Source: a virus
Virus record (IMG/VR): IMGVR_UViG_3300023179_000021
Location: 81,641-145,640 of that record
Length of the DNA: 64,000 nucleotides
Strand: one strand, 5' to 3'
Shown: positions 2,843-50,061 of the stretch, in pieces
Layout of the letters: each line of letters starts with the position of its first letter
Position numbering within the stretch: the first letter of the stretch is position 1
The notes under the pieces: generated by a model
Seen by the model: the letters and a program-made list of their open reading frames with translations, nothing else
What the model was told of the DNA's origin: nothing
The model's database searches: none
Translations under genes and position numbers: made by a program

Positions 2843-3408
2843 AATTAGATTTTTGTGCTATTTGTGGTACTAAAGAAGGTTTACACCAACATCATATTCA
2901 TCCTGTTGTATACTCTACGGCAAAAAGAAACAGTAAGAAATATGACTCAAATAAGAAATTAAAAGAATGTGATATTTTTGAGATATGGGCTTATCTTTTA
3001 GATCAAGGTTATATATCAGATGATGCGACGGTTACGGTTTGTGAATTTCATCACAATATGTTGCACGGTATAGTTAAATTCACAAAAGCAAAACAATCCG
3101 ATATGATTAAAGCAGGTATAGAAAAATCTAGACAAAAAGGCATCAAGCTTGGAAGACCTAGTAAATTGAATGATGAAATGATATACAATGTGCATCAAAT
3201 GCGAAAAAATGGATTTTCAATTAGAGATGCGGCGAGAGAACTTAAAATTGGTATAGGCACAATTTATTCAGCTTTAAACTTGGAACCAAAAGATTTATCG
3301 AACGAAGAGTGTGATGAAATTCTGAATTTGATTGAAAATGATGAACTTGATTCACATTTAACTGTTGAATTGGAATCAACTTCTTATTGGGAAAATCTTC
3401 GTGAATGA
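2839..3408 (+). CDS. HNH endonuclease fused to a resolvase/Hin-type HTH (putative homing endonuclease)
   Basis: CxxC...HHIHP...CEFHHNMLH, then GIKLGRPSKL...SIRDAARELKIGIGTIY. Confidence 0.7.
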   Translation: MKLDFCAICGTKEGLHQHHIHPVVYSTAKRNSKKYDSNKKLKECDIFEIWAYLLDQGYISDDATVTVCEFHHNMLHGIVKFTKAKQSDMIKAGIEKSRQKGIKLGRPSKLNDEMIYNVHQMRKNGFSIRDAARELKIGIGTIYSALNLEPKDLSNEECDEILNLIENDELDSHLTVELESTSYWENLRE

Positions 3409-4552
3409 TTTATTTAATCTTCTTAGACTAAAACGTTCTAATTCATTTAAAAAAAGTACCAAATATCATGTAGCTCGTAGCCGAAATAAAAGAAAAATAC
3501 GAAAAATTGACGATAGGAAATATGAAATGGGTGCATCAATGGAAGATAAATCACAAACAGAGTATTTTTTAAGTGCATCATCTTTGAATGACCATGTGAT
3601 TTCTAAATGTTTATCAAAGCGTGTTGAATTAAGATTTACAACAATTTGTCTTAAAGAAAGTTTGGTTTGTAATCCTAAGGAATGGCATGAATATGTCCGT
3701 TATAAATTAGATGATGAATTCAATCAATTGGTTGAATTTGGCCATCAAACTGGTATGATTATCAATAATGAAACAAATGATTTCGTTGATTACACTGTCA
3801 ATTCCAATCTTGTTGAAGTCAAAATTTATGGCTCTAAACAATTTACCGAAAAAATGTATGGCCAATTGACCGAGGATTTTGAAATTGCTGCATGTTATAT
3901 TGAATGGGTTTATGGTTCAGATGGTGAATCCGTAAATATTCCATTATCATCAGAAAAGCTTCCAATTTCTGAGATGTACCCTTTTCTTGGGAGTGAATCA
4001 ATCGAAGAATACTATAATCGTTTTTTAGAATCATCAGCATCGATTCTTCTTTTGATTGGTCCACCAGGCACAGGTAAAACCACATTCATTCGTGGTTTGC
4101 TTTATCATTCTGCTATGAACGCCATTGTTACCTATGACGATAAGATCCTAGAGCGTGATTATATCTTTGCTCGTTTTATTGAGGATGATGTTGGCGTAAT
4201 GGTCATTGAAGATGCTGATAGTTTCCTCAAACCAAGGGCCGATGGCAATACAATGATGCATCGCTTTCTAAATGTGGGCGATGGCCTTATTTCAATGAAA
4301 CGTAAGAAACTCATCTTTTCAACCAATCTGCCATCGGTTAATGATGTTGATGATGCTCTAATTCGTCCCGGTCGTTGCTTTGATATTTTAAATTTTGAGA
4401 ATTATAACGAAGAACAAGCTAAGATTGTCAGTGGAAAACTTGGTATACCTTTTAATTCTAAATCACCTTCTGAGACTTATTCTTTGGCTGAAATCTTTCA
4501 TACACAAAAGAATTCAAACTCAAAACAGAAAAGAAAGATGGGATTTGTATGA
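3365..4552 (+). CDS. AAA+ ATPase (start uncertain)
   Basis: GPPGTGKT, VIEDAD, STN sensor, ALIRPGRC, C-terminal KMGF. Confidence 0.85.
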   Translation: MNWNQLLIGKIFVNDLFNLLRLKRSNSFKKSTKYHVARSRNKRKIRKIDDRKYEMGASMEDKSQTEYFLSASSLNDHVISKCLSKRVELRFTTICLKESLVCNPKEWHEYVRYKLDDEFNQLVEFGHQTGMIINNETNDFVDYTVNSNLVEVKIYGSKQFTEKMYGQLTEDFEIAACYIEWVYGSDGESVNIPLSSEKLPISEMYPFLGSESIEEYYNRFLESSASILLLIGPPGTGKTTFIRGLLYHSAMNAIVTYDDKILERDYIFARFIEDDVGVMVIEDADSFLKPRADGNTMMHRFLNVGDGLISMKRKKLIFSTNLPSVNDVDDALIRPGRCFDILNFENYNEEQAKIVSGKLGIPFNSKSPSETYSLAEIFHTQKNSNSKQKRKMGFV

Positions 4553-12000: not shown

Positions 12001-13351
12001 GGAATTTACTCGTAAAGTATTGCCATTTATTCAATCAGAATATTTCGCCGACAACAAAGATAAAACACTTTTTAACTTTGTTTCACAATTTGTCAATAAA
12101 TATAAAACATTGCCAACTTATGAATCTCTTGTTATTGAATTAAATAACTCAAAAAAACTTACCGATCAAGAATTAAAAAATACTTTAAATTTACTTGATG
12201 AAATAAATCAAAACAAAAGCGAGCCTACAGAGTTACAGTGGTTAATTGAACAAACCGAAAAGTTTTGCCAAGACAAGGCGATTTATAATGCCATTATGGA
12301 ATCGGTAACAATACTTGATTCTAAAAACACAAACAAGGACAAGGGTGAAATCCCTAAGTTATTATCAAATGCGCTTGGTGTTTCTTTTGATTCTCATATT
12401 GGCCACGATTATATTAATGACTACGATTCCCGTTTCGAATTTTACCACCGACAAGAAACTAGAATATCATTTGATTTAGACCTTTTTAATACAATCACCA
12501 AAGGTGGTCTACCAAATAAAACACTCAATATTTGTCTTGCTGGGACCGGCGTTGGCAAATCAATGTTTATGTGTCATGTGGCTGCATCTTGTTTATCTCA
12601 GGGCTTGAATGTTCTTTATATTACACTTGAGATGGCCGAAGAAAGAATCGCCGAGCGTATTGATGCCAATCTTTTAAATGTATCAATGAACGATCTACAT
12701 TCTATGACAAAATTGGAGTATGATCGTAAGTTTCAATCATTGCGAAATAAAACACAAGGCAAACTTATCATCAAAGAATATCCAACGGCGGCAGCCAATG
12801 CACTACACTTTCGTTCGTTGCTAAATGAATTGCACCTTAAAAAGAATTTCGTGCCGCAAATTATCTTTATTGATTATCTGAATATCTGTTCTTCGGCTCG
12901 CATTAAACCTGGTGCCAATGTTAATTCTTATTCTTATATCAAGGCGATTGCAGAAGAACTCCGTGGTCTTGCTGTTGAATTTAATTTACCTATTGTTTCA
13001 GCGACACAAACAACAAGGTCGGGCTATACAAACACTGACATTGGTCTTGAAGATACTTCCGAATCTTTTGGTCTGCCTGCAACCGCTGATTTTATGTTTG
13101 CTCTAATTTCAACAGAAGAATTAGAACAATTAAATCAAATCATGGTCAAACAATTAAAGAATCGATATGCTGATCCAAATTTTAATAAAAGGTTTGTAAT
13201 CGGCGTTGATCGTTCGAAGATGAAGTTGTATGATGTTGAACAATTGGCACAAACTGGTATTGTAGATTCTGGCCAAGATGATCCGCCGCTAAATACTTTT
13301 GGAAACCGTGAAAGTAAATTCAATCGTAAGTTTGAAGGCTTTAAAGTATGA
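11957..13351 (+). CDS. gp41: replicative DNA helicase
   Basis: LAGTGVGKS, ITLEMAEE, IKEYPT, FIDYLNI, QLKNRY. Confidence 0.97.
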   Translation: MRLETSILKNLIFNEEFTRKVLPFIQSEYFADNKDKTLFNFVSQFVNKYKTLPTYESLVIELNNSKKLTDQELKNTLNLLDEINQNKSEPTELQWLIEQTEKFCQDKAIYNAIMESVTILDSKNTNKDKGEIPKLLSNALGVSFDSHIGHDYINDYDSRFEFYHRQETRISFDLDLFNTITKGGLPNKTLNICLAGTGVGKSMFMCHVAASCLSQGLNVLYITLEMAEERIAERIDANLLNVSMNDLHSMTKLEYDRKFQSLRNKTQGKLIIKEYPTAAANALHFRSLLNELHLKKNFVPQIIFIDYLNICSSARIKPGANVNSYSYIKAIAEELRGLAVEFNLPIVSATQTTRSGYTNTDIGLEDTSESFGLPATADFMFALISTEELEQLNQIMVKQLKNRYADPNFNKRFVIGVDRSKMKLYDVEQLAQTGIVDSGQDDPPLNTFGNRESKFNRKFEGFKV

Positions 13352-14463
13352 AACTGAATAAAGAACAGGCGCTTCATTGCGCTGAAGCCTTTTCTAATTA
13401 TTTTGACCGATTTGGCCGTATTGATGATTACATTCGTGACCAGAAACTAAATTCATTATCTTCAAGGCCGACTACTCTACCTGGGATGGGACCCGAAGAA
13501 GATTTATTTTCTGATTTTACCATGCACCCAAACGACATGAATTTGGAGTTGGTCGAATTGCCTCAGGACAGTTGGGACATTTATTTAAATATGATTTCTT
13601 CTCATTCAAATATGACCAGTATTCCAGGCCGGTGTTTTCGTTTGGCTGTTCTCGAAAAGAACACAAATAAATGGGTTGGTTTTATTCGCCTTGGTTCACC
13701 AGTTATCAACATGAAACCACGAAATGAACTTCTTGGTGGAGTATTTACACAAACAAAAGAATCAGCCAGAGCCTTCAATCAAACAACTATCATGGGTTTC
13801 GTAATTGTGCCATCGCAGCCATTTGGTTATAATTATCTTGGTGGTAAATTATTGGCGGCCATTTGTTGCTCTCATTGGGTTCGTGAGCAGTTGAACAAGA
13901 AGTATGATATGAATACTTGTATGTTTGAAACAACCAGTCTCTATGGTACATCGAAATCTTCATCGCAATATGACGGTATGAAGCCCTTTTTGAGGTTTAG
14001 TGGTCTTACCGACTCCGATTTTCTGCCAATGATGCACGGTAAACCTTATGAAGAACTCAAAGACTATGTTGAAAATGCTGTTGGTGTTATTGTGCCACCT
14101 GAAGCCTCTAGTCGTAAACTTAAAATTTCAAATAAAATTATCAGTATGACCAAAGTGGCTCTAAAAGGTGAACCAGAATACGGCAAATTTATAACAACGA
14201 TTCAAAACGCATTGTCTTTGACTGAAAAGAAACGATATTATTATTCAAACTACGGCTTCTCCAACTTTACAGATGTGGTGATGGGCCGCGCAGATAAGTT
14301 GGTGCCAGACAAGGAGAATTATGATAAGTTTCGCCTCGACAACATTATTAACTGGTGGAAGAAAAAGGCTACAAATCGTTTTGAAAATCTAAAGGCTGAG
14401 AATAGACTCCGAACAGAAATAGAAGTTTGGACTGGTGAAAAAGAGCTTGACATTATTCGGTAA
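13348..14463 (+). CDS. DUF4338/DruA-like (GNAT-fold) protein
   Basis: PFGYNYLGGKLLA and ETTSLYG...SQY motifs. Confidence 0.6.
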   Translation: MKLNKEQALHCAEAFSNYFDRFGRIDDYIRDQKLNSLSSRPTTLPGMGPEEDLFSDFTMHPNDMNLELVELPQDSWDIYLNMISSHSNMTSIPGRCFRLAVLEKNTNKWVGFIRLGSPVINMKPRNELLGGVFTQTKESARAFNQTTIMGFVIVPSQPFGYNYLGGKLLAAICCSHWVREQLNKKYDMNTCMFETTSLYGTSKSSSQYDGMKPFLRFSGLTDSDFLPMMHGKPYEELKDYVENAVGVIVPPEASSRKLKISNKIISMTKVALKGEPEYGKFITTIQNALSLTEKKRYYYSNYGFSNFTDVVMGRADKLVPDKENYDKFRLDNIINWWKKKATNRFENLKAENRLRTEIEVWTGEKELDIIR

Positions 14464-14480: not shown

Positions 14481-14490
14481 CTCCAAAACA

Positions 14491-15834
14491 ATGGAGTATC
14501 AGATGACCCCAGCAGACTTAAAGAAAGAAGCAGGTAAAGGACCGTATAAAGGAGTTCCAAGAACACAAATTTTCAAACTTAAAATAGAGGATGGAAAACC
14601 TTTTACTTTAAATAACGGTCAAAAAGTTCAAGGTACAAAATGGGATGAATCTAATTACACACTATATGTTGGTTCTCGTAAAATATCTCTAAAAGAAATA
14701 AAGAAAGATCCAGATTTTGGTGGAGGTGGTTCTGGTGCTGGTGCTGATGTTACTGCGATTGTAGAATGTGGCCAAGCTCTAGTTTGTTCATTAGTTTATA
14801 ATGTAATGAGGCGTGAAATAAAATGGGAAAATTTAACAATGGAAGGATTACAAGAGGCTTTAAAATATTGTTATCTTTCTGACAGCCTTGATGCTATCAT
14901 TGAAAGATCACCCGCCGAATGGGTACAGTCTTATGTTAAATCGGCGAATATTTTATATAGAAATTATAAGATGATGGGTTCACCTGTGTATTTTCATCGT
15001 GGTTCTAAGTTTATGGATGAGATTTATGCTAGTAAGAAAATTGTTTATGATGCTGATAAGAAGTCTGATAATCCGCAAGCACCAGGCTCATTCTCTGACG
15101 ATAAATGGAACCCAGGCGATATATGGATGACAACATTGAAACAAGTTCCATCAATTAGTAGTGATTCTTGGTCAAATTTAAATAAAGACATTTATGATTT
15201 AGCTCGTGCTAAAAAACTAATAGGTGTTTCATTGAAGAAGGTTGGAGCTACGGCACATATTGAAGAGTATAATGCTCTAAGTACGAAACAAACTAAAGAT
15301 TATAATTATGGTGGTTTCCGTGTTTCGTCGGCATCGGAACGAGGTCCTTTACCTCCATTTTTTAATTCAATTGATTTGTACATGAAAGTTGGTGAAAAAG
15401 AAATTCAGTTTAGAGCCACATCAGGTTCTGCTGGCTGGCAAGGCGAGATAAAGGGTGCCACTGCTGCAGGTGGTAAAATTGGTGGAGGTAATGTGAACTT
15501 CTTTTTGAAAAAGTATACTGGTCGTGGTGTTTTCAATAAAGAAGAAAAAGAAGTCATAGATTTCACAAAGTCTAAAGATTTTTTTCCAGAATTTTACGAG
15601 CTCTATAAAAAACATTTTGATGGTAAAATTTTACCTTATGAAGATTTTGTGATTAATGCTAACAAGAAACAAAAGGAATCGGCTGGTTATCTCTTCTCTA
15701 AATATATCAACATGAAATTTATTGATATATTTTTAAGTGCAAACGCTCAAACTAGAAACAAAATTGCAACTGAATTTTTAAGATATGCAGCTTCAAACAT
15801 AGATCAAAGTTCCTTTTTTGTAAAGATATCCTAA
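14491..15834 (+). CDS. PD-(D/E)xK-like nuclease-fold protein
   Basis: E..Q, DKWNPGDIW and GVSLKK motifs. Confidence 0.55.
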   Translation: MEYQMTPADLKKEAGKGPYKGVPRTQIFKLKIEDGKPFTLNNGQKVQGTKWDESNYTLYVGSRKISLKEIKKDPDFGGGGSGAGADVTAIVECGQALVCSLVYNVMRREIKWENLTMEGLQEALKYCYLSDSLDAIIERSPAEWVQSYVKSANILYRNYKMMGSPVYFHRGSKFMDEIYASKKIVYDADKKSDNPQAPGSFSDDKWNPGDIWMTTLKQVPSISSDSWSNLNKDIYDLARAKKLIGVSLKKVGATAHIEEYNALSTKQTKDYNYGGFRVSSASERGPLPPFFNSIDLYMKVGEKEIQFRATSGSAGWQGEIKGATAAGGKIGGGNVNFFLKKYTGRGVFNKEEKEVIDFTKSKDFFPEFYELYKKHFDGKILPYEDFVINANKKQKESAGYLFSKYINMKFIDIFLSANAQTRNKIATEFLRYAASNIDQSSFFVKIS

Positions 15835-16331
15835 TGTACTTCAAAGAATTTTTAAACGAAGCAAAAGAGGGTGCTAATTTACATTTAGAACATTTAGAAG
15901 ATAATGTGCTTAATCGTGGTACAAATGGTGCTCGTGAAGCTATTAATTTTCTTCGTTCGCTTCGTGACATGTTGGCCGGCCATGCACAATCAAAAACAAA
16001 TGTTACCACAAAATGGGACGGTTGTATTAGAGAAGATACTATTTTAAAAACAAACTATGGTGAAATGACAATAAAAGAATTACATGAAAAATTTCTATCT
16101 TTAGAAAATGTTAAAATTATGGCTAAAGATTTAAAATCAGAAATACCGATTGATAAAATGGTTTCTGTTTTAAATACTTATTGTAACGATGGAAATAAAT
16201 CGTGGGTTGAAATAGAAGTAGAAAATGGAAGTAGCATATTTGTAACAGAAGATCATAAAATACATACAACGAATAGAGGTTGGATTGAAGCTGTAAAATT
16301 GAATGTGGGTGATGATATAACCGAACTATAA
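15834..16331 (+). CDS. N-part of a fractured gene: DUF6267-like N-extein (63 aa, ending KWDG) plus split intein N-half (102 aa, from nt 16023)
   Basis: HLEHLED...TTKWDG|CIREDTILKT (block A Cys1); FVTEDHKIHTTNRGW (block B TxxH); then stop. Confidence 0.9.
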   Translation: MYFKEFLNEAKEGANLHLEHLEDNVLNRGTNGAREAINFLRSLRDMLAGHAQSKTNVTTKWDGCIREDTILKTNYGEMTIKELHEKFLSLENVKIMAKDLKSEIPIDKMVSVLNTYCNDGNKSWVEIEVENGSSIFVTEDHKIHTTNRGWIEAVKLNVGDDITEL

Positions 16332-16352
16332 AATTAGACGGTATTCATCTCA

Positions 16353-16390
16353 ATTTTTCTTTTTTTATAAATAAAATAAAGGAGAAAAAT
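16353..16390 (+). promoter_or_regulatory. late promoter TATAAATA (16366-16373) inside an SD-sequestering hairpin
   Basis: ATTTTTCTTTTTT pairs with AAAGGAGAAAAAT (13 bp, 2 G:U). Confidence 0.65.
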
Positions 16391-17047
16391 ATGAAAATTA
16401 ATGTAATTACGGAAGAAATTAGGAACCTAATTATAGAAACTTATAAACAAGAATATTCTGTTTCTAAAGTTATGGAAAAGTGTCCGAAAGGAATAGGGCG
16501 AAAAAGAGTTGAAAAAATATTAAAAGATGTTAATGTTTATGAGGGATTAAACGGTAAAAATTATTTAAAGAAAAAAGTTGAAAATCATGAAAAATTAATG
16601 ATGGAAAAATATGGCGTTATTAATTGGGGACAAACGAAAAACGGTGGTTACAGAAGTCAAAACAAAATACCATATAAAAAAATAAGTTTTTTAACCGATG
16701 ACTATAAAAAATATAGACTTTTAGTGGAAAAAGAAACTGAAAAAAATATAAAAAAGTTTTTTAAAACATATCCAAAATATTGTTATTATACAAAAATTTT
16801 ATTTGCCGATGAAGAGGGTCCTGTGAATCCAAATGATCCTAGAAAAAGAAGTGTGGATCATAAAGTGCCAGTTTTACATTGTTATTTAAATAATATTGAT
16901 GTGGAAAAAGCTTCTAGTATTGACAATATTATTTTTGTTTTGCGTTATGTAAATGCTGTAAAAGGACAAACTTTAGAGGAATCTTTTCTACCAATCGTGG
17001 AAAAAATAAGAAAGGTTTTTATAAATGAAGGTTTTAAAAGTAAATAG
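16391..17047 (+). mobile_element. free-standing homing endonuclease (HNH-like) between the split-intein halves
   Basis: AT-rich, basic ORF; MMEKYGVINWGQ; C-terminal SVDHKVP...SIDNI...NAVKG. Confidence 0.7.
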
Positions 17048-18179
17048 ATTAAGTGAAAAATATAAACAATATGATTTATCTACAGAAACAGAAAATTTCT
17101 TTGTGAAACTCGGAGAAGTTTGGGGGTTAATTCATAATTCACCCGCTGTGATTTGTGGTATTAATCCAGACAATGGTAAATTCTTCGTTGGCACCAAATC
17201 AGTATTCAATAAAGAGGGTAAACTAAATTATACCGACGCTGATATTGATAAGAACCATCCTGGTGAAGGCCTCAATGATAAGCTGAAGATAGCACTTGCA
17301 TATTTACCAAAACTAGGCATCAAAGGTATCATTCAAGGTGACATGATGTTTACAAAAGGTGATATAAAGAAACAAACAATCGACGGTCAATCCTATGCTA
17401 CCTTTCAACCAAATACGATTGTTTATGCCGTACCTTCTGATTCTGTTATGGCACAAAAGATGATGGCTGCACAACTTGGTATTGTTTTTCATACCACATA
17501 CAATGGCCGTTCAATGAAAACCCTTAAGGCCTCATTTAACATTGATATTGGACATCTCACGCCAACCAAAGATGTATGGTTTCGTGATGCTTCTTTTGTT
17601 GATGCTTCAGGTACAGCAACATTTACTGAACAAGAAACAAAGAAATTATCTGATGTTCTTTCCAATGCCGGCCGAGTGTTTCAGTCTATTAATTCATCGG
17701 TACTTAATCGCATATCAACTAACGAAACTTTTAACCTTTATATCAAAACATTCAATAATACCAAAGTTCGTTCTGGTGAACCAATTAAGAATACCCAACA
17801 ACACACTACACAACTGATAAAATGGATTGAAGATAAACTGAATAAAGAAATATTGGCGGCCAAGAAAGAAGACACTAAGAAAAAACGAATCGGTGAAAAA
17901 AATGAGGTCATGCGTTTCTTTCGAGGCAATGCTATACAACTAAAAAGTATATTTGACCTAATGAATCTAATTGTTGATGCAAAAGTTATGATTGTTCGTA
18001 AATTAGAAACAATTAAATCTTCAATTGATACATTTGTTGTAACACCAGATGGTTTTAAGGTAACTGGTCCCGAAGGGTTTGTTTGCGTGGATAGAATTTC
18101 TGGTGGTGCATTGAAGTTGATTGACCGTATGGAGTTCAGTAAAAACAATTTCAATGCTGCTAAGGCATGGAGTAAATAA
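17025..18179 (+). CDS. C-part of the fractured gene: split intein C-half (38 aa, to nt 17138) plus DUF6267-like C-extein (346 aa)
   Basis: YDLSTETENFF (block F)...LIHN|SPAVICG (block G His-Asn, Ser+1); extein has FFVGTKS, QGDMMF, PEGFV, LKLIDRMEFS. Confidence 0.9.
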   Translation: MKVLKVNRLSEKYKQYDLSTETENFFVKLGEVWGLIHNSPAVICGINPDNGKFFVGTKSVFNKEGKLNYTDADIDKNHPGEGLNDKLKIALAYLPKLGIKGIIQGDMMFTKGDIKKQTIDGQSYATFQPNTIVYAVPSDSVMAQKMMAAQLGIVFHTTYNGRSMKTLKASFNIDIGHLTPTKDVWFRDASFVDASGTATFTEQETKKLSDVLSNAGRVFQSINSSVLNRISTNETFNLYIKTFNNTKVRSGEPIKNTQQHTTQLIKWIEDKLNKEILAAKKEDTKKKRIGEKNEVMRFFRGNAIQLKSIFDLMNLIVDAKVMIVRKLETIKSSIDTFVVTPDGFKVTGPEGFVCVDRISGGALKLIDRMEFSKNNFNAAKAWSK

Positions 18180-18461
18180 ATGGCCACAAAGAAATATGAC
18201 CTAACACAAATTATGGCAGAATTTGATGATGATGATTTTGGATTTAGCACCCTTGATGAATCAGAATATGAGGCAGTGATTGCTGAGAAGGATGAAACAG
18301 TTGAAGAATACAAACAAAGATTAGAACAAGTTGAAAAGATTATATTGCCATTTCTAAACAAATTACTTAAAACTGCCGATCAAGCCGTCATTAAATGGCC
18401 CAATCGTAAACCTGTGATTGAAGCACAAATACAAAAAATTCTCAATCTAACCAGAGAATAA
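18180..18461 (+). CDS. conserved hypothetical phage protein
   Basis: DDFGFS and IKWPNR; tightly packed. Confidence 0.6.
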
Positions 18462-18462
18462 T

Positions 18463-18783
18463 ATGATACAAATTACCGAAAAAGCTTTTAAACAAATCCA
18501 TGAAATTATGATTGAAGAAGATACCAATGAGGCACTAAGAGTGTTTGTTCAAGGTGGTGGTTGTTCTGGTTTTCAATATGGGTTTACATTTGATGAAAAC
18601 CAAGCTGATGATGATTTTGTTATTGAACAGGATGGTGTTAGAGTTCTTGTTGATGCGGCTTCAATGACATATCTTAGTGGTGCAGAAATTGATTATAAGA
18701 AAGATTTAACTTCGGCACAATTCGTTATTAAAAACCCCAACGCAACTAATACTTGTGGTTGCGGTTCTTCTTTTGCAGCATAA
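18463..18783 (+). CDS. erpA: A-type Fe-S carrier ErpA/IscA
   Basis: [21 protein letters not shown] and CGCGSSF. Confidence 0.9.
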
Positions 18784-18784
18784 T

Positions 18785-19174
18785 ATGGCATACTCAGAAA
18801 AAGTTTTAGATCATTATGAAAATCCTCGTAATGTGGGATCATTTGCTAAAGAAATAAAACGTATTGGCACAGGTATGGTTGGTGCTCCAGCCTGTGGTGA
18901 TGTGATGAAACTACAAATACAGGTAAATGATGATGGTATCATTACGGATGCTAAATTTAAAACATATGGATGTGGTTCAGCGATTGCGTCTAGTTCGCTC
19001 GTTACGGAATGGGTCAAAGGTAAAACTCTCGACGAGGCCTGCACTATTCGCAATACTCAAATTGCAGAAGAACTTGCGCTACCACCCGTTAAGATACACT
19101 GCTCCATATTGGCAGAGGATGCGATCAAAGCCGCAATAAAAGATTTTCGTGATAAACATGAAGGAACAACATGA
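18785..19174 (+). CDS. iscU: Fe-S scaffold IscU
   Basis: MAYSEKVLDHYENPRNVG, GAPACGD, GCGSAIAS, LPPVKIHC. Confidence 0.96.
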   Translation: MAYSEKVLDHYENPRNVGSFAKEIKRIGTGMVGAPACGDVMKLQIQVNDDGIITDAKFKTYGCGSAIASSSLVTEWVKGKTLDEACTIRNTQIAEELALPPVKIHCSILAEDAIKAAIKDFRDKHEGTT

Positions 19175-25529: not shown

Positions 25530-28442
25530 ATGAGATTCCTAGAGTTCTTAATTGAACAAAAAGAAAAACATGCAGTTTTAGCTTTTGGTCGTATGAATCC
25601 AATTACGACGGGGCATGAAAAACTAGTTGAAGCTGTTAAATCCATAGCGAAAAAGTATGGTGCAACGCCATATATTGTAGTTTCACATTCGCAAGATTCA
25701 AAGAAAAACCCACTTTCGGCTCAACAAAAACTCCAGTACGCTAAAAAGTTCTTTCTTGGCGTAAACTTTTCAGCTTCAGATAAAGTGTCACCAAATATTT
25801 TTTCTCAAGCTTCAAAACTTTACAAAATGGGATATACTCATCTTCATGTTGTTGGTGGTTCTGATCGTGTCGATGAATATAAAAATATCATGAACAAATA
25901 TAATAATGTTAAAGGTTCTCATGGTTTTTATAATTTTAAAAACATTATGGTTCATTCAGCTGGTGAAAGAGATCCTGATGCGAAGGGCACTGAGGGCATG
26001 TCAGCATCAAAAATGCGTGAAGCTGCTAAAAACAATGATTTTAAAACATTTCGCAAAGGTGTTCCAAGTCATGCTACAGAATCGGATGCAAAAGGATTAT
26101 TTAATGATGTAAGACATGGAATGGGTCTTAAAGAGAGTATTGATTTTGATTTTGAAGAAATGTTTTTAGAGGGTGTCCATGATAAAAGTATTTTCAAGGC
26201 CGTTTTTCTTGCCGGTGGTCCAGGGTCTGGTAAAGATTATGTACTAGACAATACATTAAGTGGCCATGGGTTGACCGAGATTAATTCGGATAAAGCCTTT
26301 GAATATCTCATGGACAAAAAGAATTTAGATATGAAAATGCCCGAAAGTGAGAAAGAAGCTCGTGATGTTGTTCGTGGTAGAGCTAAATCTATGACTGAAC
26401 TACGCGAAAGATTAGCTCTTCTTGGTCGTAATGGTGTAATTATCAATGGCACTGGTGATGACCCAGAAAAAATCGCAAGAATTAAACAACGTCTTGAGCA
26501 AATTGGCTATGAAACAAGAATGATTATGGTAAATACTCGTGATGAAGTTTCGGCATCAAGAAATGTAGAAAGGGGGCAACGTGGTGGTCGTACAGTGCCA
26601 GAAAAGATTCGTAAACAAAAGTGGGATTCTGTGCAGGCTGCCAGGCCAGAACTCGCTAAACTTTTTGGTGATAATTATACTGAATTTGATAACTCGGAAG
26701 ATTTAAGAACAGCCAGACCCGAGATTGTACAACAAAAGAAACAAGAAATGTTGGATCTTTATAAAAGTGTACAAAAATTTGTAACAAAACCACCCAAAAA
26801 TGATGTGTCAAAAGAATGGATTGCAAGCGAATTACAGAAAGCCGATGTACAAAAAATTGATACGAAGAAAGAAGTAGCGCCACATGAAGGATCCAAAGCA
26901 GCAGAAGAGGCACGAAGAATGGGCCTTAAATATTATGGTTTTGGCCGATATGGAAAAGATGGTAAAGTAACTCATCGTGTTATACATGATAAATTGACCG
27001 ATGTAAGTAAATCTGCTCAACAAGAACCTGCTGCAAGAGAAGCTATAAGAACAATTGCAGCGGCTGGTTCAAGTGGTTCAAATATTACTCCAAGGCAAAA
27101 AGAAAAACTTAAAACACTTATGAGTAAATCGAAATTGCCAAAATTAAAAGAAGAAAATGAACCAAGAATACCTAAAAAACCTGGGCAACCAGATAAGTCG
27201 GATAAACATTCTGATTTATATACCGATGAAGAACCAAGAGGTACGATTCATGGGTTGAAATTTGCTACAAAAGAAGATGCTGAAGAAAGTGTAAGAAAAA
27301 TTAAATCAAGTGATCGTTCACATGCACATAAAATACAAGCAGCTGTTGCTATGGAGCAAAGAGCAAGAGTTATGGGTAAAGATTCTGCAGCTGCCGTTTA
27401 TCGAAAGTTTATAAATTCTATGAAAGAATCATTTGAAAATACTGATGAAGAATTCGAAAATTTATTTTCTGAAGATTTGCGTCAATGGTTTAACCCATCT
27501 CATCCAAAAGGTGGTTGGAAAAGAGTTAACAGTAAAGGTGAAGTTATTGGTCCTTGTGCTCGTGAACCTGGTGAGGGTAAACCAAAATGTTTATCTAATG
27601 AAAAAATTGGTAGTTTATCTAAAAAAGAACGTGCTGCGGCTTTTCGTGCAAAAAGAAAGTATGATCCAAATCCAGAACGCCAAGGTAAACCAATTAATGT
27701 ATCAAACTTTGGCAAAGGTAAATTATCAGAATCTTATGATTTGACAGATTCAAGCGCACTTAATATTTTACTCTTAGGTAATCGTATTGATGAAATTGAT
27801 TTAGACGATAACTATATACAGTTTGAAGAAAAAAAATATTTAAAAGATTCTAGCGGAAAAATTCGTGTGTTTATGTTACGAAGAGCCGCAACAAAAGAAG
27901 CACACACTAAAAACGGAACAGTCATACCATATAAAAATGGTTATATTGTCCAACTAAACGAGGAGACTTATCATGGGAATTCTACAATTCCTGAAAGACA
28001 TATTTTGGGTGAACAAATCGAACTCAGAGAAACCACATCCGCTGGACCCACTTACTTTACCGAAACAAGAGCCCGCCTTAGAGAGTACGCCGAGCTTACC
28101 ACAGGTCAAGAATATGCCAGAGGAGAAGGAATCACCAGTGCCGGAACAGAAGCGCCAGCCGCAGGCACAAAAATCACCCTCGCCAAAATCAGGCAACGGC
28201 AGAAGGAAGCCAAAGTCAAAGAATCTATCGACAAGGGCATAGAACCGGGTCTTTCAATGTCGGCTTCTGGTGAAAATGCTGGGCGACCATCTTTAAAAAC
28301 AAAACAAAATAAAAAACCTTTTGAAGAGGCAATTGGTGCTGGTGGTGAAGATGCAAATTCAATTGGTGCTAAAAAAGAAGATGAACTAAAAAAAGTGGGA
28401 ATTAGTTTAACAACATTCAAAGCAAAAAGGCCAATAGGATGA
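25530..28442 (+). CDS. multidomain protein: cytidylyltransferase-like, zeta-toxin-like P-loop kinase and small basic modules; putative head-packaged
   Basis: FGRMNPITTGH, VGGSDR, GMSASKMR; FLAGGPGSGK; N-terminus MRFLEFLIE; late-like ACTAAATA at 25487. Confidence 0.8.
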   Translation: MRFLEFLIEQKEKHAVLAFGRMNPITTGHEKLVEAVKSIAKKYGATPYIVVSHSQDSKKNPLSAQQKLQYAKKFFLGVNFSASDKVSPNIFSQASKLYKMGYTHLHVVGGSDRVDEYKNIMNKYNNVKGSHGFYNFKNIMVHSAGERDPDAKGTEGMSASKMREAAKNNDFKTFRKGVPSHATESDAKGLFNDVRHGMGLKESIDFDFEEMFLEGVHDKSIFKAVFLAGGPGSGKDYVLDNTLSGHGLTEINSDKAFEYLMDKKNLDMKMPESEKEARDVVRGRAKSMTELRERLALLGRNGVIINGTGDDPEKIARIKQRLEQIGYETRMIMVNTRDEVSASRNVERGQRGGRTVPEKIRKQKWDSVQAARPELAKLFGDNYTEFDNSEDLRTARPEIVQQKKQEMLDLYKSVQKFVTKPPKNDVSKEWIASELQKADVQKIDTKKEVAPHEGSKAAEEARRMGLKYYGFGRYGKDGKVTHRVIHDKLTDVSKSAQQEPAAREAIRTIAAAGSSGSNITPRQKEKLKTLMSKSKLPKLKEENEPRIPKKPGQPDKSDKHSDLYTDEEPRGTIHGLKFATKEDAEESVRKIKSSDRSHAHKIQAAVAMEQRARVMGKDSAAAVYRKFINSMKESFENTDEEFENLFSEDLRQWFNPSHPKGGWKRVNSKGEVIGPCAREPGEGKPKCLSNEKIGSLSKKERAAAFRAKRKYDPNPERQGKPINVSNFGKGKLSESYDLTDSSALNILLLGNRIDEIDLDDNYIQFEEKKYLKDSSGKIRVFMLRRAATKEAHTKNGTVIPYKNGYIVQLNEETYHGNSTIPERHILGEQIELRETTSAGPTYFTETRARLREYAELTTGQEYARGEGITSAGTEAPAAGTKITLAKIRQRQKEAKVKESIDKGIEPGLSMSASGENAGRPSLKTKQNKKPFEEAIGAGGEDANSIGAKKEDELKKVGISLTTFKAKRPIG
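27973..28242 (+). CDS. candidate nested out-of-frame gene (89 aa)
   Basis: GAGGAG SD 7 nt upstream; amphipathic MGILQFLKDIFW start; Pro/Lys-rich tail. Confidence 0.45.
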   Translation: MGILQFLKDIFWVNKSNSEKPHPLDPLTLPKQEPALESTPSLPQVKNMPEEKESPVPEQKRQPQAQKSPSPKSGNGRRKPKSKNLSTRA

Positions 28443-29137
28443 AAAACTTTAAAACATTTATAACAGAAGGTCGCCCTTCACAGAGACACCCACTAGAGGG
28501 CCATGATTATCATAAGAAAACTGATGCTCAACTAGAATATATTGCTAAAGACGCACACAAGGCTGCTGAGGCCATGAAAGGTCACAACACACAGGCAGAA
28601 AACAAGTATCGTGACCAGGCCAATGATTCAGCAACCGTAAGATACTGGCGCAAGAAAAATGGTATGCCTGACTGGTATAAGAAAAAATACGGTCACATGA
28701 AAGAAGAAGTAGAACAAATTGATGAAATGGATAAATCACAACCTTCTTCAAGTCGTGGTGCTGAAGGATTACCATTAGGTAAAAAAGCAATCCCAGTTAA
28801 AACTGATAAAGTTAAATCTGATGCGCTAAAAGTATTGCAGAAACAATACAAAAAAGTAAAAGAAGAAATTGAAATCGAAGAAGATTGGCAAAAAGTAAAT
28901 AAGGCCGATAAAACCGATGGTCTCTCACAGAAGGCCGTAGATGCTTATCGCCGTGAGAATCCGGGTTCTAAACTTCAAACAGCTGTAACTGAAAAGAACC
29001 CAACAGGTAAACGAGCAGCACGCCGTAAATCATTTTGTTCTCGGATGGGCGGTATGAAGAAACGATTAACAAACCCGGAAAATGCTCGTGATCCGGATAG
29101 CCCAATCAACAAGGCTCTACGCCGCTGGAATTGCTAA
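28439..29137 (+). CDS. modular basic protein (DUF6321-like C-terminal module), putative internal head protein
   Basis: MKNFKTFITE start; RRKSFCSRM...INKALRRWNC. Confidence 0.65.
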   Translation: MKNFKTFITEGRPSQRHPLEGHDYHKKTDAQLEYIAKDAHKAAEAMKGHNTQAENKYRDQANDSATVRYWRKKNGMPDWYKKKYGHMKEEVEQIDEMDKSQPSSSRGAEGLPLGKKAIPVKTDKVKSDALKVLQKQYKKVKEEIEIEEDWQKVNKADKTDGLSQKAVDAYRRENPGSKLQTAVTEKNPTGKRAARRKSFCSRMGGMKKRLTNPENARDPDSPINKALRRWNC

Positions 29138-49512: not shown

Positions 49513-50061
49513 ATGAAAACATACAAAGAATTTGTACAAGAATCTTCATTGTCACGAGTACATTCGCATACACAAGGCCGAAATATAGGTATGATTACGG
49601 CCCATCGTGGAGAAAATACAGCCGAAGAAAATAATCGAAACAATGATTCTCTTAAAAAATCTATAAGAGATGCTGGTTATGGGTTTATTCCTGTCCGAGG
49701 CCGTTATATAGAAAACCATGGCACACCACAAGCTCGTCCTGTTGATGAAAAATCTTTTTTAGTTGTAGGTAAAAAGGGTGATGATAAAGGTGAACTTAAA
49801 AAATTTTTAATTAAACATGGCGAAAAACACGGCCAAGATTCAATTTTACATAAACCCCATGATGAAGAAAATGCTAAATTGCATGGAACTAAAGAGGGTG
49901 GATTTCCAGGTAAGGGGAAAACGCATGATGTTGGAAAATTTCATCCAAACCGTGCTTCTGAATTTCATACGGCCATGAAAGGTTCCAGAACATTTGCATT
50001 TGAATCATTTGAATTTTTAAATTCCGTTGGGTTTTTTTCACGGGAAGAAAAGTTATTTTAA
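49513..50061 (+). CDS. SAM lyase (T3 SAMase/Svi3-3-like) with capsid-targeting N-terminus
   Basis: ITAHR, GRYIE, DEKSF and GQDSIL motifs; MKTYKEFVQE start; CATAAATA at 49477. Confidence 0.7.
   Translation: MKTYKEFVQESSLSRVHSHTQGRNIGMITAHRGENTAEENNRNNDSLKKSIRDAGYGFIPVRGRYIENHGTPQARPVDEKSFLVVGKKGDDKGELKKFLIKHGEKHGQDSILHKPHDEENAKLHGTKEGGFPGKGKTHDVGKFHPNRASEFHTAMKGSRTFAFESFEFLNSVGFFSREEKLF

Follow-up and report, generated by a model that had tools for sequence, protein, structure and literature searches.

The DUF6267 gene considered here is broken into two parts by a split intein that holds an endonuclease gene between its halves, and lies in a 64,000-nucleotide stretch (the window, positions 81,641 to 145,640) of the virus record IMGVR_UViG_3300023179_000021. 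Its closest described counterparts are the fractured genes of Dassa et al (2009), a set of 26–27 loci from eight enzyme types and one protein of unknown function, with gp41-1, NrdJ-1, IMPDH-1, NrdA-2, DnaE, DNA ligase and terminase among the broken genes; the endonucleases of that set were GIY-YIG or Vsr-like ones only, other hosts and HNH types were explicitly anticipated, and a series of free-standing, embedded and decayed types was proposed largely by inference (PMC2677866). As in the window, these genes place an endonuclease open reading frame (ORF) between two extein–intein halves, of which the N-half is acidic and the C-half basic, and they too come from aquatic phage metagenomes; the endonuclease ORF of the window further resembles theirs in lying on the same strand as both halves and in having its own TATAAATA and Shine–Dalgarno (SD) sequence. 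The window departs from this set in that its host, DUF6267, is not among the eight named enzyme types (their locus of "unknown function, upstream of nrdB" was not compared), in that its endonuclease is predicted to be of the HNH type and to have a Myb-like domain for DNA binding, and in that this endonuclease family also occurs free-standing beside the intact target and at all stages of decay.

The architecture matches the one described by Dassa et al (2009), and the kind of element is therefore already known. What appears new, given the one locus left out of the comparison, is the host gene and the insertion site after G63 of its KWDG motif, together with an HNH/Myb-like endonuclease family dedicated to DUF6267, a documented series of free-standing, embedded and decayed forms in which the split state persists, an empty site resolved to the nucleotide, with a single natural sample containing both alleles, and a clue to the function of a conserved phage protein that is uncharacterised. 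An earlier note, made from the sequence of this DNA, had held that the host was not known as a split-intein site; this stands in so far as we found no mention in the literature of DUF6267, or of Syn9 gp183, with the same single locus outstanding.

Two other systems each share part of the arrangement. The split DnaE intein of Ssp and Npu is, like that of the window, a class-1 intein with Cys1, divided at the same structural position into halves of similar size (102 and 38 amino acids (aa) in the window) and of complementary charge. In DnaE, the two halves are encoded at distant places in the genome, have no intervening endonuclease gene and are followed by Cys+1, whereas those of the window lie 0.7 kb apart in one operon, enclose an endonuclease gene and are followed by Ser+1. 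The nrdA–mobE–nrdA locus of Aeh1, as far as the summary in PMC2677866 describes it, likewise has a T4-like phage gene split by an HNH-type free-standing endonuclease gene, and the confinement of mobE expression to the late phase of infection, through control of both transcription and translation (Friedrich et al, 2007; Gibb & Edgell, 2007), resembles the placing of TATAAATA within a hairpin in the window. According to the same summary, Aeh1 has no intein at this locus and its NrdA halves associate without splicing, whereas the endonuclease gene of the window is flanked by intein halves.

A DUF6267 gene divided by a split intein

The locus is a real fractured gene of the Dassa et al (2009) type. 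It consists of three ORFs, whose positions and sequences are exactly those given in the earlier note (Table 1), and the Pfam DUF6267 profile is divided precisely between the outer two, positions 1–47 corresponding to ORF1 residues 15–63 (E 4e-14) and positions 48–376 to ORF3 residues 39–380 (E 6.5e-92), such that the split arrangement is not a matter of chance. Splicing in silico gives a product of 63 + 346 = 409 aa in which the lysine of KWDG is Lys60; this product and the sizes of the N-terminal and C-terminal intein halves (IntN and IntC) reproduce what the note had read from the letters. IntC has its own ATG and lies in a separate ORF from IntN, which runs into a stop after DDITEL. The start of ORF1 overlaps the stop of the upstream gene (TAATG), and the last 23 nucleotides (nt) of ORF2 overlap the start of IntC, an overlap that is kept in the related loci L003 and L006.

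Table 1. Features of the fractured DUF6267 locus and ORFs that carry the N-terminal leader (window positions).
Feature	Position	Strand	Description
ORF1 (N-extein + IntN)	15834–16331	+	165 aa; ...TTKWDG, CIREDT...TEDHK...GDDITEL, stop
ORF2 (free-standing endonuclease gene)	16391–17047	+	218 aa; 25.7% GC
ORF3 (IntC + C-extein)	17025–18179	+	384 aa; MKVLKVNR...YDLST...NFF...LIHN, then SPAVICG
DUF6267 N-extein	15834–16022	+	63 codons; leader MYFKEFLNE, helix α-1, strand ending K60-W-D-G63
IntN	16023–16331	+	102 codons + TAA; C64 to L165 of ORF1; Cys1 (block A), T-E-D-H (block B)
Regulatory spacer	16332–16390	+	59 nt; stem-loop ~16338–16350, TATAAATA 16366–16373, Shine–Dalgarno GGAG 16381–16384
IntC	17025–17138	+	38 codons; block F Y-D-L-S-T...NFF, block G L-I-H-N, basic head
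DUF6267 C-extein	17139–18179	+	346 codons + stop; first codon Ser+1 (TCA)
Inserted mobile cassette (IntN, spacer, endonuclease gene, IntC)	16023–17138	+	1,116 bp; 25.6% GC
Leader-bearing ORFs	DUF6267 N-half; 25530–28442; 28439–29137; 49513–50061		pattern at the first ATG

Uninterrupted homologues run straight across the break. In the closest cultured relative, Methylophilales phage Melnitz, the DUF6267 gene (gp16, 415 aa) is intact, and its residues 4–64 (...KWDG) align to ORF1 residues 3–63, with residue 65 onward (APAIFAG...) aligning to ORF3 from Ser39. A metagenomic protein of 409 aa, P0271, has the junction KWDG-APAV and is 100% identical to the N-extein and 97.7% identical to the C-extein of the window; judged by its sequence, it comes from essentially the same phage and is the allele that lacks the intein. 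No residue is missing or duplicated where Melnitz and P0271 pass over the junction, and the contiguity through KWDG-APA that the earlier note expected of intact DUF6267 homologues is present in both. A tblastn search with ORF3 matched 461 phage genomes, and all but two of the matches begin at residue 39.

The contig that encodes P0271 (L010) allows the boundary to be placed to the nucleotide. It matches window positions 14484–16022 at 99.4% and 17142–18783 at 96.2%, with the DNA alignment breaking exactly at 16022/17139; window positions 16023–17138 therefore constitute a clean insertion between ...TGGGACGGT and CCCGCTGT.... At the codon that follows the insertion, the empty allele has GCT (Ala) and the window TCA (Ser). 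Among 83 intact homologues this +1 residue is Ala in 62 and Ser in 19, and every intein-bearing allele examined carries Ser.

The ends of the insertion have the blocks of a class-1 intein, and the intein profiles that the earlier note proposed to scan find both halves. TIGR01445 (NCBIfam, intein N-terminal splicing region) starts at C64 and aligns over positions 1–82 of 83 with 32.4 bits, above its curated cutoff of 24.5, and PF14890 (Intein_splicing) is matched in the appropriate region by each half (profile positions 2–92 by ORF1 residues 70–162, positions 122–148 by ORF3 residues 2–27). The two PF14890 scores, 27.7 and 13.7 bits, formally remain below the gathering threshold of 35.8 and to that extent weigh against the assignment; such scores are expected because each match is to half a domain. 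Across 40 IntN sequences (39–89% identical to that of the window) C1, T75, D77 and H78 are invariant, and nearly all of these sequences stop at the same DDITEL end, showing that the split point itself is conserved. The 11 IntC heads that were aligned read Y/C-D-I/L-S/T-T...NF-F/Y in block F and all end in HN (block G), the terminal HN being followed by Ser in all loci examined. The halves are, as the note had described them, acidic and basic, with a net charge of −7 for IntN and +3 for the first 20 residues of IntC. Among solved inteins, NrdJ-1, itself from a fractured gene, comes nearest (E 1e-6); in PHROG, IntN is best matched by the IntN-bearing end of a helicase family of phages, and NCBIfam NF007079 (DnaE N-half) gives a weak match.

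Prediction of a complex between ORF1 residues 55–165 and ORF3 residues 1–60 returned an interface score (ipSAE) of 0.78, against 0.00 for the best control; the mark set for this score is reached by 51 of 78 solved complexes and by 2 of 108 mismatched pairs. Agreement between runs covers at least 86% of contacts, the predicted local distance difference test (pLDDT) of the partner is at least 69, and the modelled interface spans IntC residues 1–40, although the pass may reflect a likeness to (or memory of) solved split-intein complexes rather than constitute independent proof. Taken with the continuity of the exteins, blocks A, B, F and G, the empty-site allele, and the purifying selection and recurrence described below, the modelled interface supports the reading of these halves as a naturally split class-1 intein, which the earlier note had put forward.

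Together the alleles, dozens in number and with IntN diverging to ~39% identity, form a large family of natural inteins that are split at the canonical site and have Cys1 and Ser+1. Because the family is related to, yet distinct from, the fast gp41-1 and NrdJ-1 inteins, its members are candidate orthogonal ligation tools. More distant relatives of IntN are present in many other viral genes, split as well as contiguous. Some contigs (L092, L095, L099, L105, L121, L125 and L131) have two to four of these relatives within a few kb, some contiguous within very long ORFs and others split, with several inteins in some genes. In the phage's own genome, tblastn found no second copy of IntN, IntC or the endonuclease; a PF14890 profile search of that genome missed even the present intein, and is too insensitive to inform on others.

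The endonuclease gene and the life of the cassette

The earlier note labeled the product of ORF2 HNH-like, a label that holds for the motif and for the predicted fold. ORF2 matches PHROG 1035, "endonuclease VII" (E 4e-7), and D156-H157, N179 and N188-x-x-K191 are invariant in 58 homologues (the D-H...N...N-x-x-K pattern); these residues lie on a strand–strand–helix element at 153–191 of the AlphaFold2 (AF2) model, which has a pLDDT of 93.2. In the model, residues 1–55 form a three-helix DNA-binding domain of the Myb/GcrA/Tc3-like kind (fold matches Z 6–7), and residues ~97–216 form a putative ββα-metal domain that matches the HNH nucleases PacI (Z 6.3, 95 residues aligned), Gme-HNH (Z 6.3) and T5 SciA (Z 5.4), with Foldseek probabilities of 0.93–0.97. 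Two points weigh against the assignment, namely that Z scores near 6 fall in the range where chance arrangements occur, and that no Pfam family is found on ORF2, nor any Pfam HNH model even at E up to 10. Matches of ORF2 to PDB sequences by phmmer were spurious and were rejected.

When IMG/VR was scanned with the endonuclease alignment, 41 loci were returned; the gene adjoins DUF6267 in all 41. It lies between IntN and IntC in 26 loci, stands free directly upstream of an uninterrupted DUF6267 gene in eight (L025–L030, L032, L037), and takes a shorter form, oriented divergently beside DUF6267, in seven (L044–L050). Scanning with the IntN alignment reveals a series of decay, in which the gene is broken in two (L042, the same as L072), truncated (L051), reduced to remnants (L070, L071) or absent (L058, L098). 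The last two were considered as mini-inteins and rejected, given that IntN and IntC remain there as two ORFs that differ in frame; on this sequence evidence the endonuclease decays while the intein stays split. One endonuclease family is therefore caught at every stage around a single target gene: free-standing, within the split intein, and broken, reduced to remnants or lost.

No allele with a contiguous intein was found among the 150 best DUF6267 family representatives, the longer ORF1 relatives or the IntN-scan loci of viral contigs, which does not prove absence. Eleven of these 150 representatives are IntC-bearing C-halves, and the long forms among the 150 all have a domain fused at the N- or C-terminus and an insert of 0 residues at the junction. 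The endonuclease tree has an unresolved backbone and does not separate a free-standing-first from an embedded-first order of events.

Upstream of the endonuclease gene, the spacer contains TATAAATA, which we take to be the T4 late-promoter consensus and which recurs in this place in most loci, free-standing copies of the gene included. The predicted hairpin of the window pairs ~16344–16365 with 16378–16395, which sequesters the endonuclease gene's SD as well as its AUG and leaves TATAAATA in the loop. The minimum-energy fold has the same form (an upstream arm paired with the SD, often with the AUG too, and TATAAATA in the loop) in 12 of 14 diverged loci, with arm sequences that differ between loci, and z is at or below −2.6 in six loci. 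The SD hairpin of the window itself reaches a z of only −1.6 to −1.9, marginally better than shuffled sequences, which tells against it. Sequestration of an SD in this manner resembles the control of T4 I-TevI.

A separate element, GAYGG-N3-4-CCRTC, directly follows the IntN stop (window 16338–16350; at the equivalent position in L003, L006 and L011–L032) and is also found upstream of free-standing endonuclease copies. Some of its pairs look compensatory and the pairing is imperfect in several loci, that of the window included; the element may be a stem-loop or, instead, a sequence or protein-binding motif.

Comparison with allele L003 gives ratios of nonsynonymous to synonymous change (dN/dS) of 0.08 for IntN and 0.19 for both the endonuclease gene and IntC, and with the distant L006 of 0.24–0.64, from which the cassette is judged to be under purifying selection. 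The cassette is more alike between the window and L003 (protein identity 81–89%, dS ~0.57) than is the host gene that carries it (exteins 71–75%, dS saturated), and its low GC content is uniform over IntN, the endonuclease gene and IntC, with 36–37% in the exteins and 35–36% in the flanks. This combination of greater similarity and foreign composition argues that the cassette moved laterally as a unit. The same three-gene layout recurs in L003, L006–L009 and 26 IMG/VR loci.

The stretch is present in freshwater and lake metagenomes from several studies, with no RNA run listed among those that contain it. In one of these (run X4), a contig covers the whole cassette (15980–17171) at a depth of ~25, and a second contig, at a depth of ~8, joins 16021 to 17142 with GGC-GCT (Gly-Ala); run X5 has the empty joint only, and in run X2 the cassette is present. 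Occupied and empty alleles thus co-occur in one lake metagenome. The joints were called at 90% likeness with sides of 30–41 letters and would be modest evidence by themselves; the independently assembled L010 confirms the empty allele.

These observations are, we consider with good confidence, best explained by a cassette-fractured DUF6267 gene of a freshwater T4-like (Kyanoviridae-like) phage, rejoined at the protein level by trans-splicing and invaded through endonuclease homing. With the cassette seated after the Gly63 codon and before that of residue 64, the gene would be translated as a 165-aa N-extein–IntN chain and a 384-aa IntC–C-extein chain; the acidic IntN and basic IntC would associate and rebuild the HINT fold, after which Cys1, the block-B Thr and His, the terminal Asn and Ser+1 would carry out splicing. 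The 409-aa product would have the junction KWDG-SPAV, and would be set apart from the uninterrupted allele only by Ala64Ser. In a co-infection, the endonuclease would cut intein-less DUF6267 alleles, and repair would copy in the whole cassette. Translation of the endonuclease from read-through transcripts is probably held off by the hairpin that hides its ribosome-binding site, with late expression probably arising from the TATAAATA promoter in the hairpin loop.

Two other readings of the broken gene have to be set against trans-splicing. The intein halves could serve as a non-covalent association module, or the chains as separate subunits, such that DUF6267 works as two chains without splicing in the manner of Aeh1 NrdA; that gene, in the summary of PMC2677866, is fractured by an HNH endonuclease gene and gives a functional two-chain product, and our complex model speaks for association, not for chemistry. 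We regard this as improbable. Cys1, the block-B Thr and His, the terminal His-Asn and Ser+1 matter only for splicing and yet are kept, in IntN down to ~39% identity; the +1 residue changes from Ala to the nucleophile Ser exactly in the intein-bearing alleles; and the break falls one residue past KxDG, the motif that is conserved most strongly, so that an open chain end there would probably interfere with the active site. Still less credible, to the point of being very nearly dismissed, is that the endonuclease cassette inactivated a dispensable gene and that the intein-like flanks are decaying relics. DUF6267 is without a demonstrated essential role, and the endonuclease gene is visibly decaying in L042/L072, L051, L070 and L071, both of which would suit a dead gene; the exteins and intein halves, however, are intact ORFs under purifying selection (dN/dS 0.08–0.25), dozens of diverged alleles keep their frames and catalytic residues, and the split with intact IntN and IntC outlives the endonuclease in L058 and L098.

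The host protein and its predicted ligase-like fold

The DUF6267 family has 2,170 representatives at E ≤ 1e-3 in a 50%-clustered library and is found, among cultured phages, mainly in Kyanoviridae. The motif at which the cassette sits is close to invariant, with K60 kept in 81, D62 in 82 and G63 in 82 of 83 homologues. The position of the intein suggests that K-W-D-G is functionally central to a conserved uncharacterised protein of Kyanoviridae and of related freshwater and marine myophages. The AF2 model of the intein-less allele (pLDDT 91.8, predicted template modelling score 0.88) was compared with solved structures by an exhaustive VIA search, in which all 12 top matches are nucleotidyltransferase domains of RNA or DNA ligases (Z 6.8–8.9, 162–205 residues aligned). 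These include NgrRnl (Z 8.9), TbREL1 (8.2), Trl1 (8.1), T4 Rnl2 (7.9) and T4 Rnl1 (7.1), with archaeal Rnl3 and DNA ligase III also among the ligases matched. Near-invariant residues lie on strands in the order of motifs I, III, IIIa, IV and V, which were assigned by pattern only (K60-x-D62-G63, Q129-G-D131, F152/P154-N-T, E375-G-x-V378 and K389...R393).

The predicted fold moderately resembles the nucleotidyltransferase domain of Rnl2/REL1, NgrRnl (Rnl5), Trl1, T4 Rnl1 and the ATP-dependent DNA ligases, and, as in these enzymes, K-x-D-G lies on a strand–turn–strand, after which conserved acidic/Gly and Lys/Arg motifs come in order. Unlike them, DUF6267 has no detectable profile similarity to ligases and no recognised oligonucleotide-binding (OB) or Rnl-type C-terminal domain, and has an inserted helical bundle and a leader.

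Several results weigh against a ligase assignment. The VIA scores of Z 7–9 are near the typical best score for unrelated models, and the argument for the fold is that all twelve top matches are ligases, not that the scores are high. Foldseek against the PDB is weak (best E 0.1); a hidden Markov model of 83 homologues finds no ligase among PDB sequences, only spurious helical matches; and Pfam returns only DUF6267 for the host protein, with no link to ligases. A helical bundle of ~130 residues (~227–353) interrupts the nucleotidyltransferase domain between the putative motifs IIIa and IV, and neither an OB-fold nor another canonical ligase accessory domain was recognised. Structure searching of the ESM Atlas gave DUF6267 clusters only, and a language-model feature search gave unnamed viral clusters only.

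On balance, the model leads us to favor, without great assurance, a lysine nucleotidyltransferase of the ligase superfamily with K60 as its nucleophile and with RNA or DNA both possible as substrate. The "ligase-like" host of the earlier note accordingly finds backing at the level of the predicted fold and none from sequence profiles, and its "adenylating enzyme" stays an inference. If K60 is catalytic, then the active-site motif would be completed only after splicing.

A ligase-like fold matters here in view of the report that no DNA ligase can be recognised in these phages: homologues of g30 (DNA ligase) were not found in cyanomyoviruses, and unidentified distant homologues were raised as a possibility (Clokie et al, 2010; PMC2984593). 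On the phage's own contig, which is estimated to be 83% complete, no PF09414 or PF01068 ligase was found, a result that is suggestive only. The function of DUF6267 is open to experiment because a cultured host–phage pair with an intact homologue exists, in the form of Melnitz.

Other members of the family are fused to AAA_33/Zeta-type P-loop kinase, cytidylyltransferase-like or DUF5824 domains, and a "cytidyltransferase" gene neighbors DUF6267 in cyanophages. In Synechococcus phage S-PM2, the DUF6267 match falls in two pieces, p141 and p142 (L132:2342–4121), of which one is a 192-aa "hypothetical" protein and the other the start of the annotated cytidyltransferase gene; a frameshift, a fusion or a mis-annotation may account for this.

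The N-terminus of the family follows the consensus M-K-[ST]-F-x-x-[FY]-[LI]-x-E (F in 59, F/Y in 63, L/I in 73 and E in 75 of 83 homologues at its four conserved positions), and residues 1–11 are disordered in the model. Targeting by the T4 capsid-targeting sequence depends mainly on residues 4 and 7, and gp21 processing at L/I-x-E is set by residues 8 and 10 (PMC9026906); the four conserved DUF6267 positions coincide with these key positions, as a matter of pattern only. The leader occurs on four first-ATG ORFs of the genome, compared with 2 of 717 internal Met positions. Beside the DUF6267 N-half, these are 25530–28442, which encodes a 970-aa protein that has the leader MRFLEFLIE, a motif (TTGHE) like that of nucleotidyltransferases and a P-loop kinase domain of the Zeta/AAA_33 type; 28439–29137, a DUF6321 protein with leader MKNFKTFITE; and 49513–50061, a 182-aa protein of the S-adenosylmethionine-lyase family (PF23780) that begins MKTYKEFVQE. 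The domain types of the first two are those fused to DUF6267 in other phages. The start of the third is, we presume, almost that of the T4 internal-protein capsid-targeting sequence, and this protein could be an ejected anti-restriction enzyme. Should the leader work as in T4, the proteins that bear it would be packaged in the head and ejected, and DUF6267 would have its leader and catalytic lysine on the N-half and the remainder on the C-half, joined only by splicing. Our literature search found no virion-proteome paper naming a DUF6267 protein.

The leader also bears on a third reading, which retains the split intein and denies that its host is a ligase-type adenylyltransferase, with KWDG instead a structural or binding motif in, for example, a capsid-internal (ejected) protein. 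The match of the leader to functionally key T4 capsid-targeting positions would fit such a protein, as would the missing sequence-profile link to ligases, the moderate fold scores and the unnamed viral clusters of the language-model search. Set against these are the twelve best VIA matches, all of them ligase nucleotidyltransferase domains with no unrelated fold among them, near-invariant residues where motifs I, III, IV and V would lie, and fusions to a P-loop kinase resembling polynucleotide kinase, which recall end-healing and sealing enzymes. We hold this reading to be a serious but rather unlikely one; capsid-packaged and ligase roles are, moreover, not mutually exclusive.

A bolder and more speculative proposal, which we put forward with considerable doubt, would draw the ligase-type nucleotidyltransferase and the leader together. 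DUF6267 might be the "missing" polynucleotide ligase of cyanomyovirus-like (Kyanoviridae) phages, a divergent lysine-adenylyltransferase with a capsid-targeting leader that is packaged and ejected or acts at the replisome, healing and sealing ends with leader-bearing P-loop kinase and nucleotidyltransferase partners; the split intein would then mark its catalytic lysine motif, and the HNH endonuclease family would document the course from free-standing neighbor to intein-embedded gene breaker to decay.

Neighboring genes and related loci

Upstream of DUF6267, the window encodes a replication module of DNA polymerase B, UvsX and a gp41-type helicase. An ORF of 371 aa (13348–14463), whose start overlaps the stop of the gp41-helicase gene, matches DruA (Druantia) PF14236 at E 1e-10 and lies within this module. 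Downstream, the comparison with L010 exposes another presence/absence polymorphism in the same population, in that L010 carries at 3185–3490 an extra segment of ~306 bp, with a 95-aa ORF, between its IscA/ErpA-like and NifU/IscU-like genes, which is missing from the window at 18783–18785.

The replication modules of related phages hold further elements of this kind. In a close relative (L003:824–1480), a 218-aa ORF with an I-TevI DNA-binding domain lies between the DNA polymerase and UvsX genes, and is another free-standing gene of homing-endonuclease-like type. In L006 (305–2427; also L007–L009), the UvsX/RecA gene looks fractured as well, consisting of a 298-aa ORF with RecA_N and intein-splicing matches, a 216-aa ORF on the opposite strand with HNH and I-TevI DNA-binding-domain matches, and then an ORF of 185 aa. 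Such a gene would add to the same replication module a second fractured gene that differs from the first.

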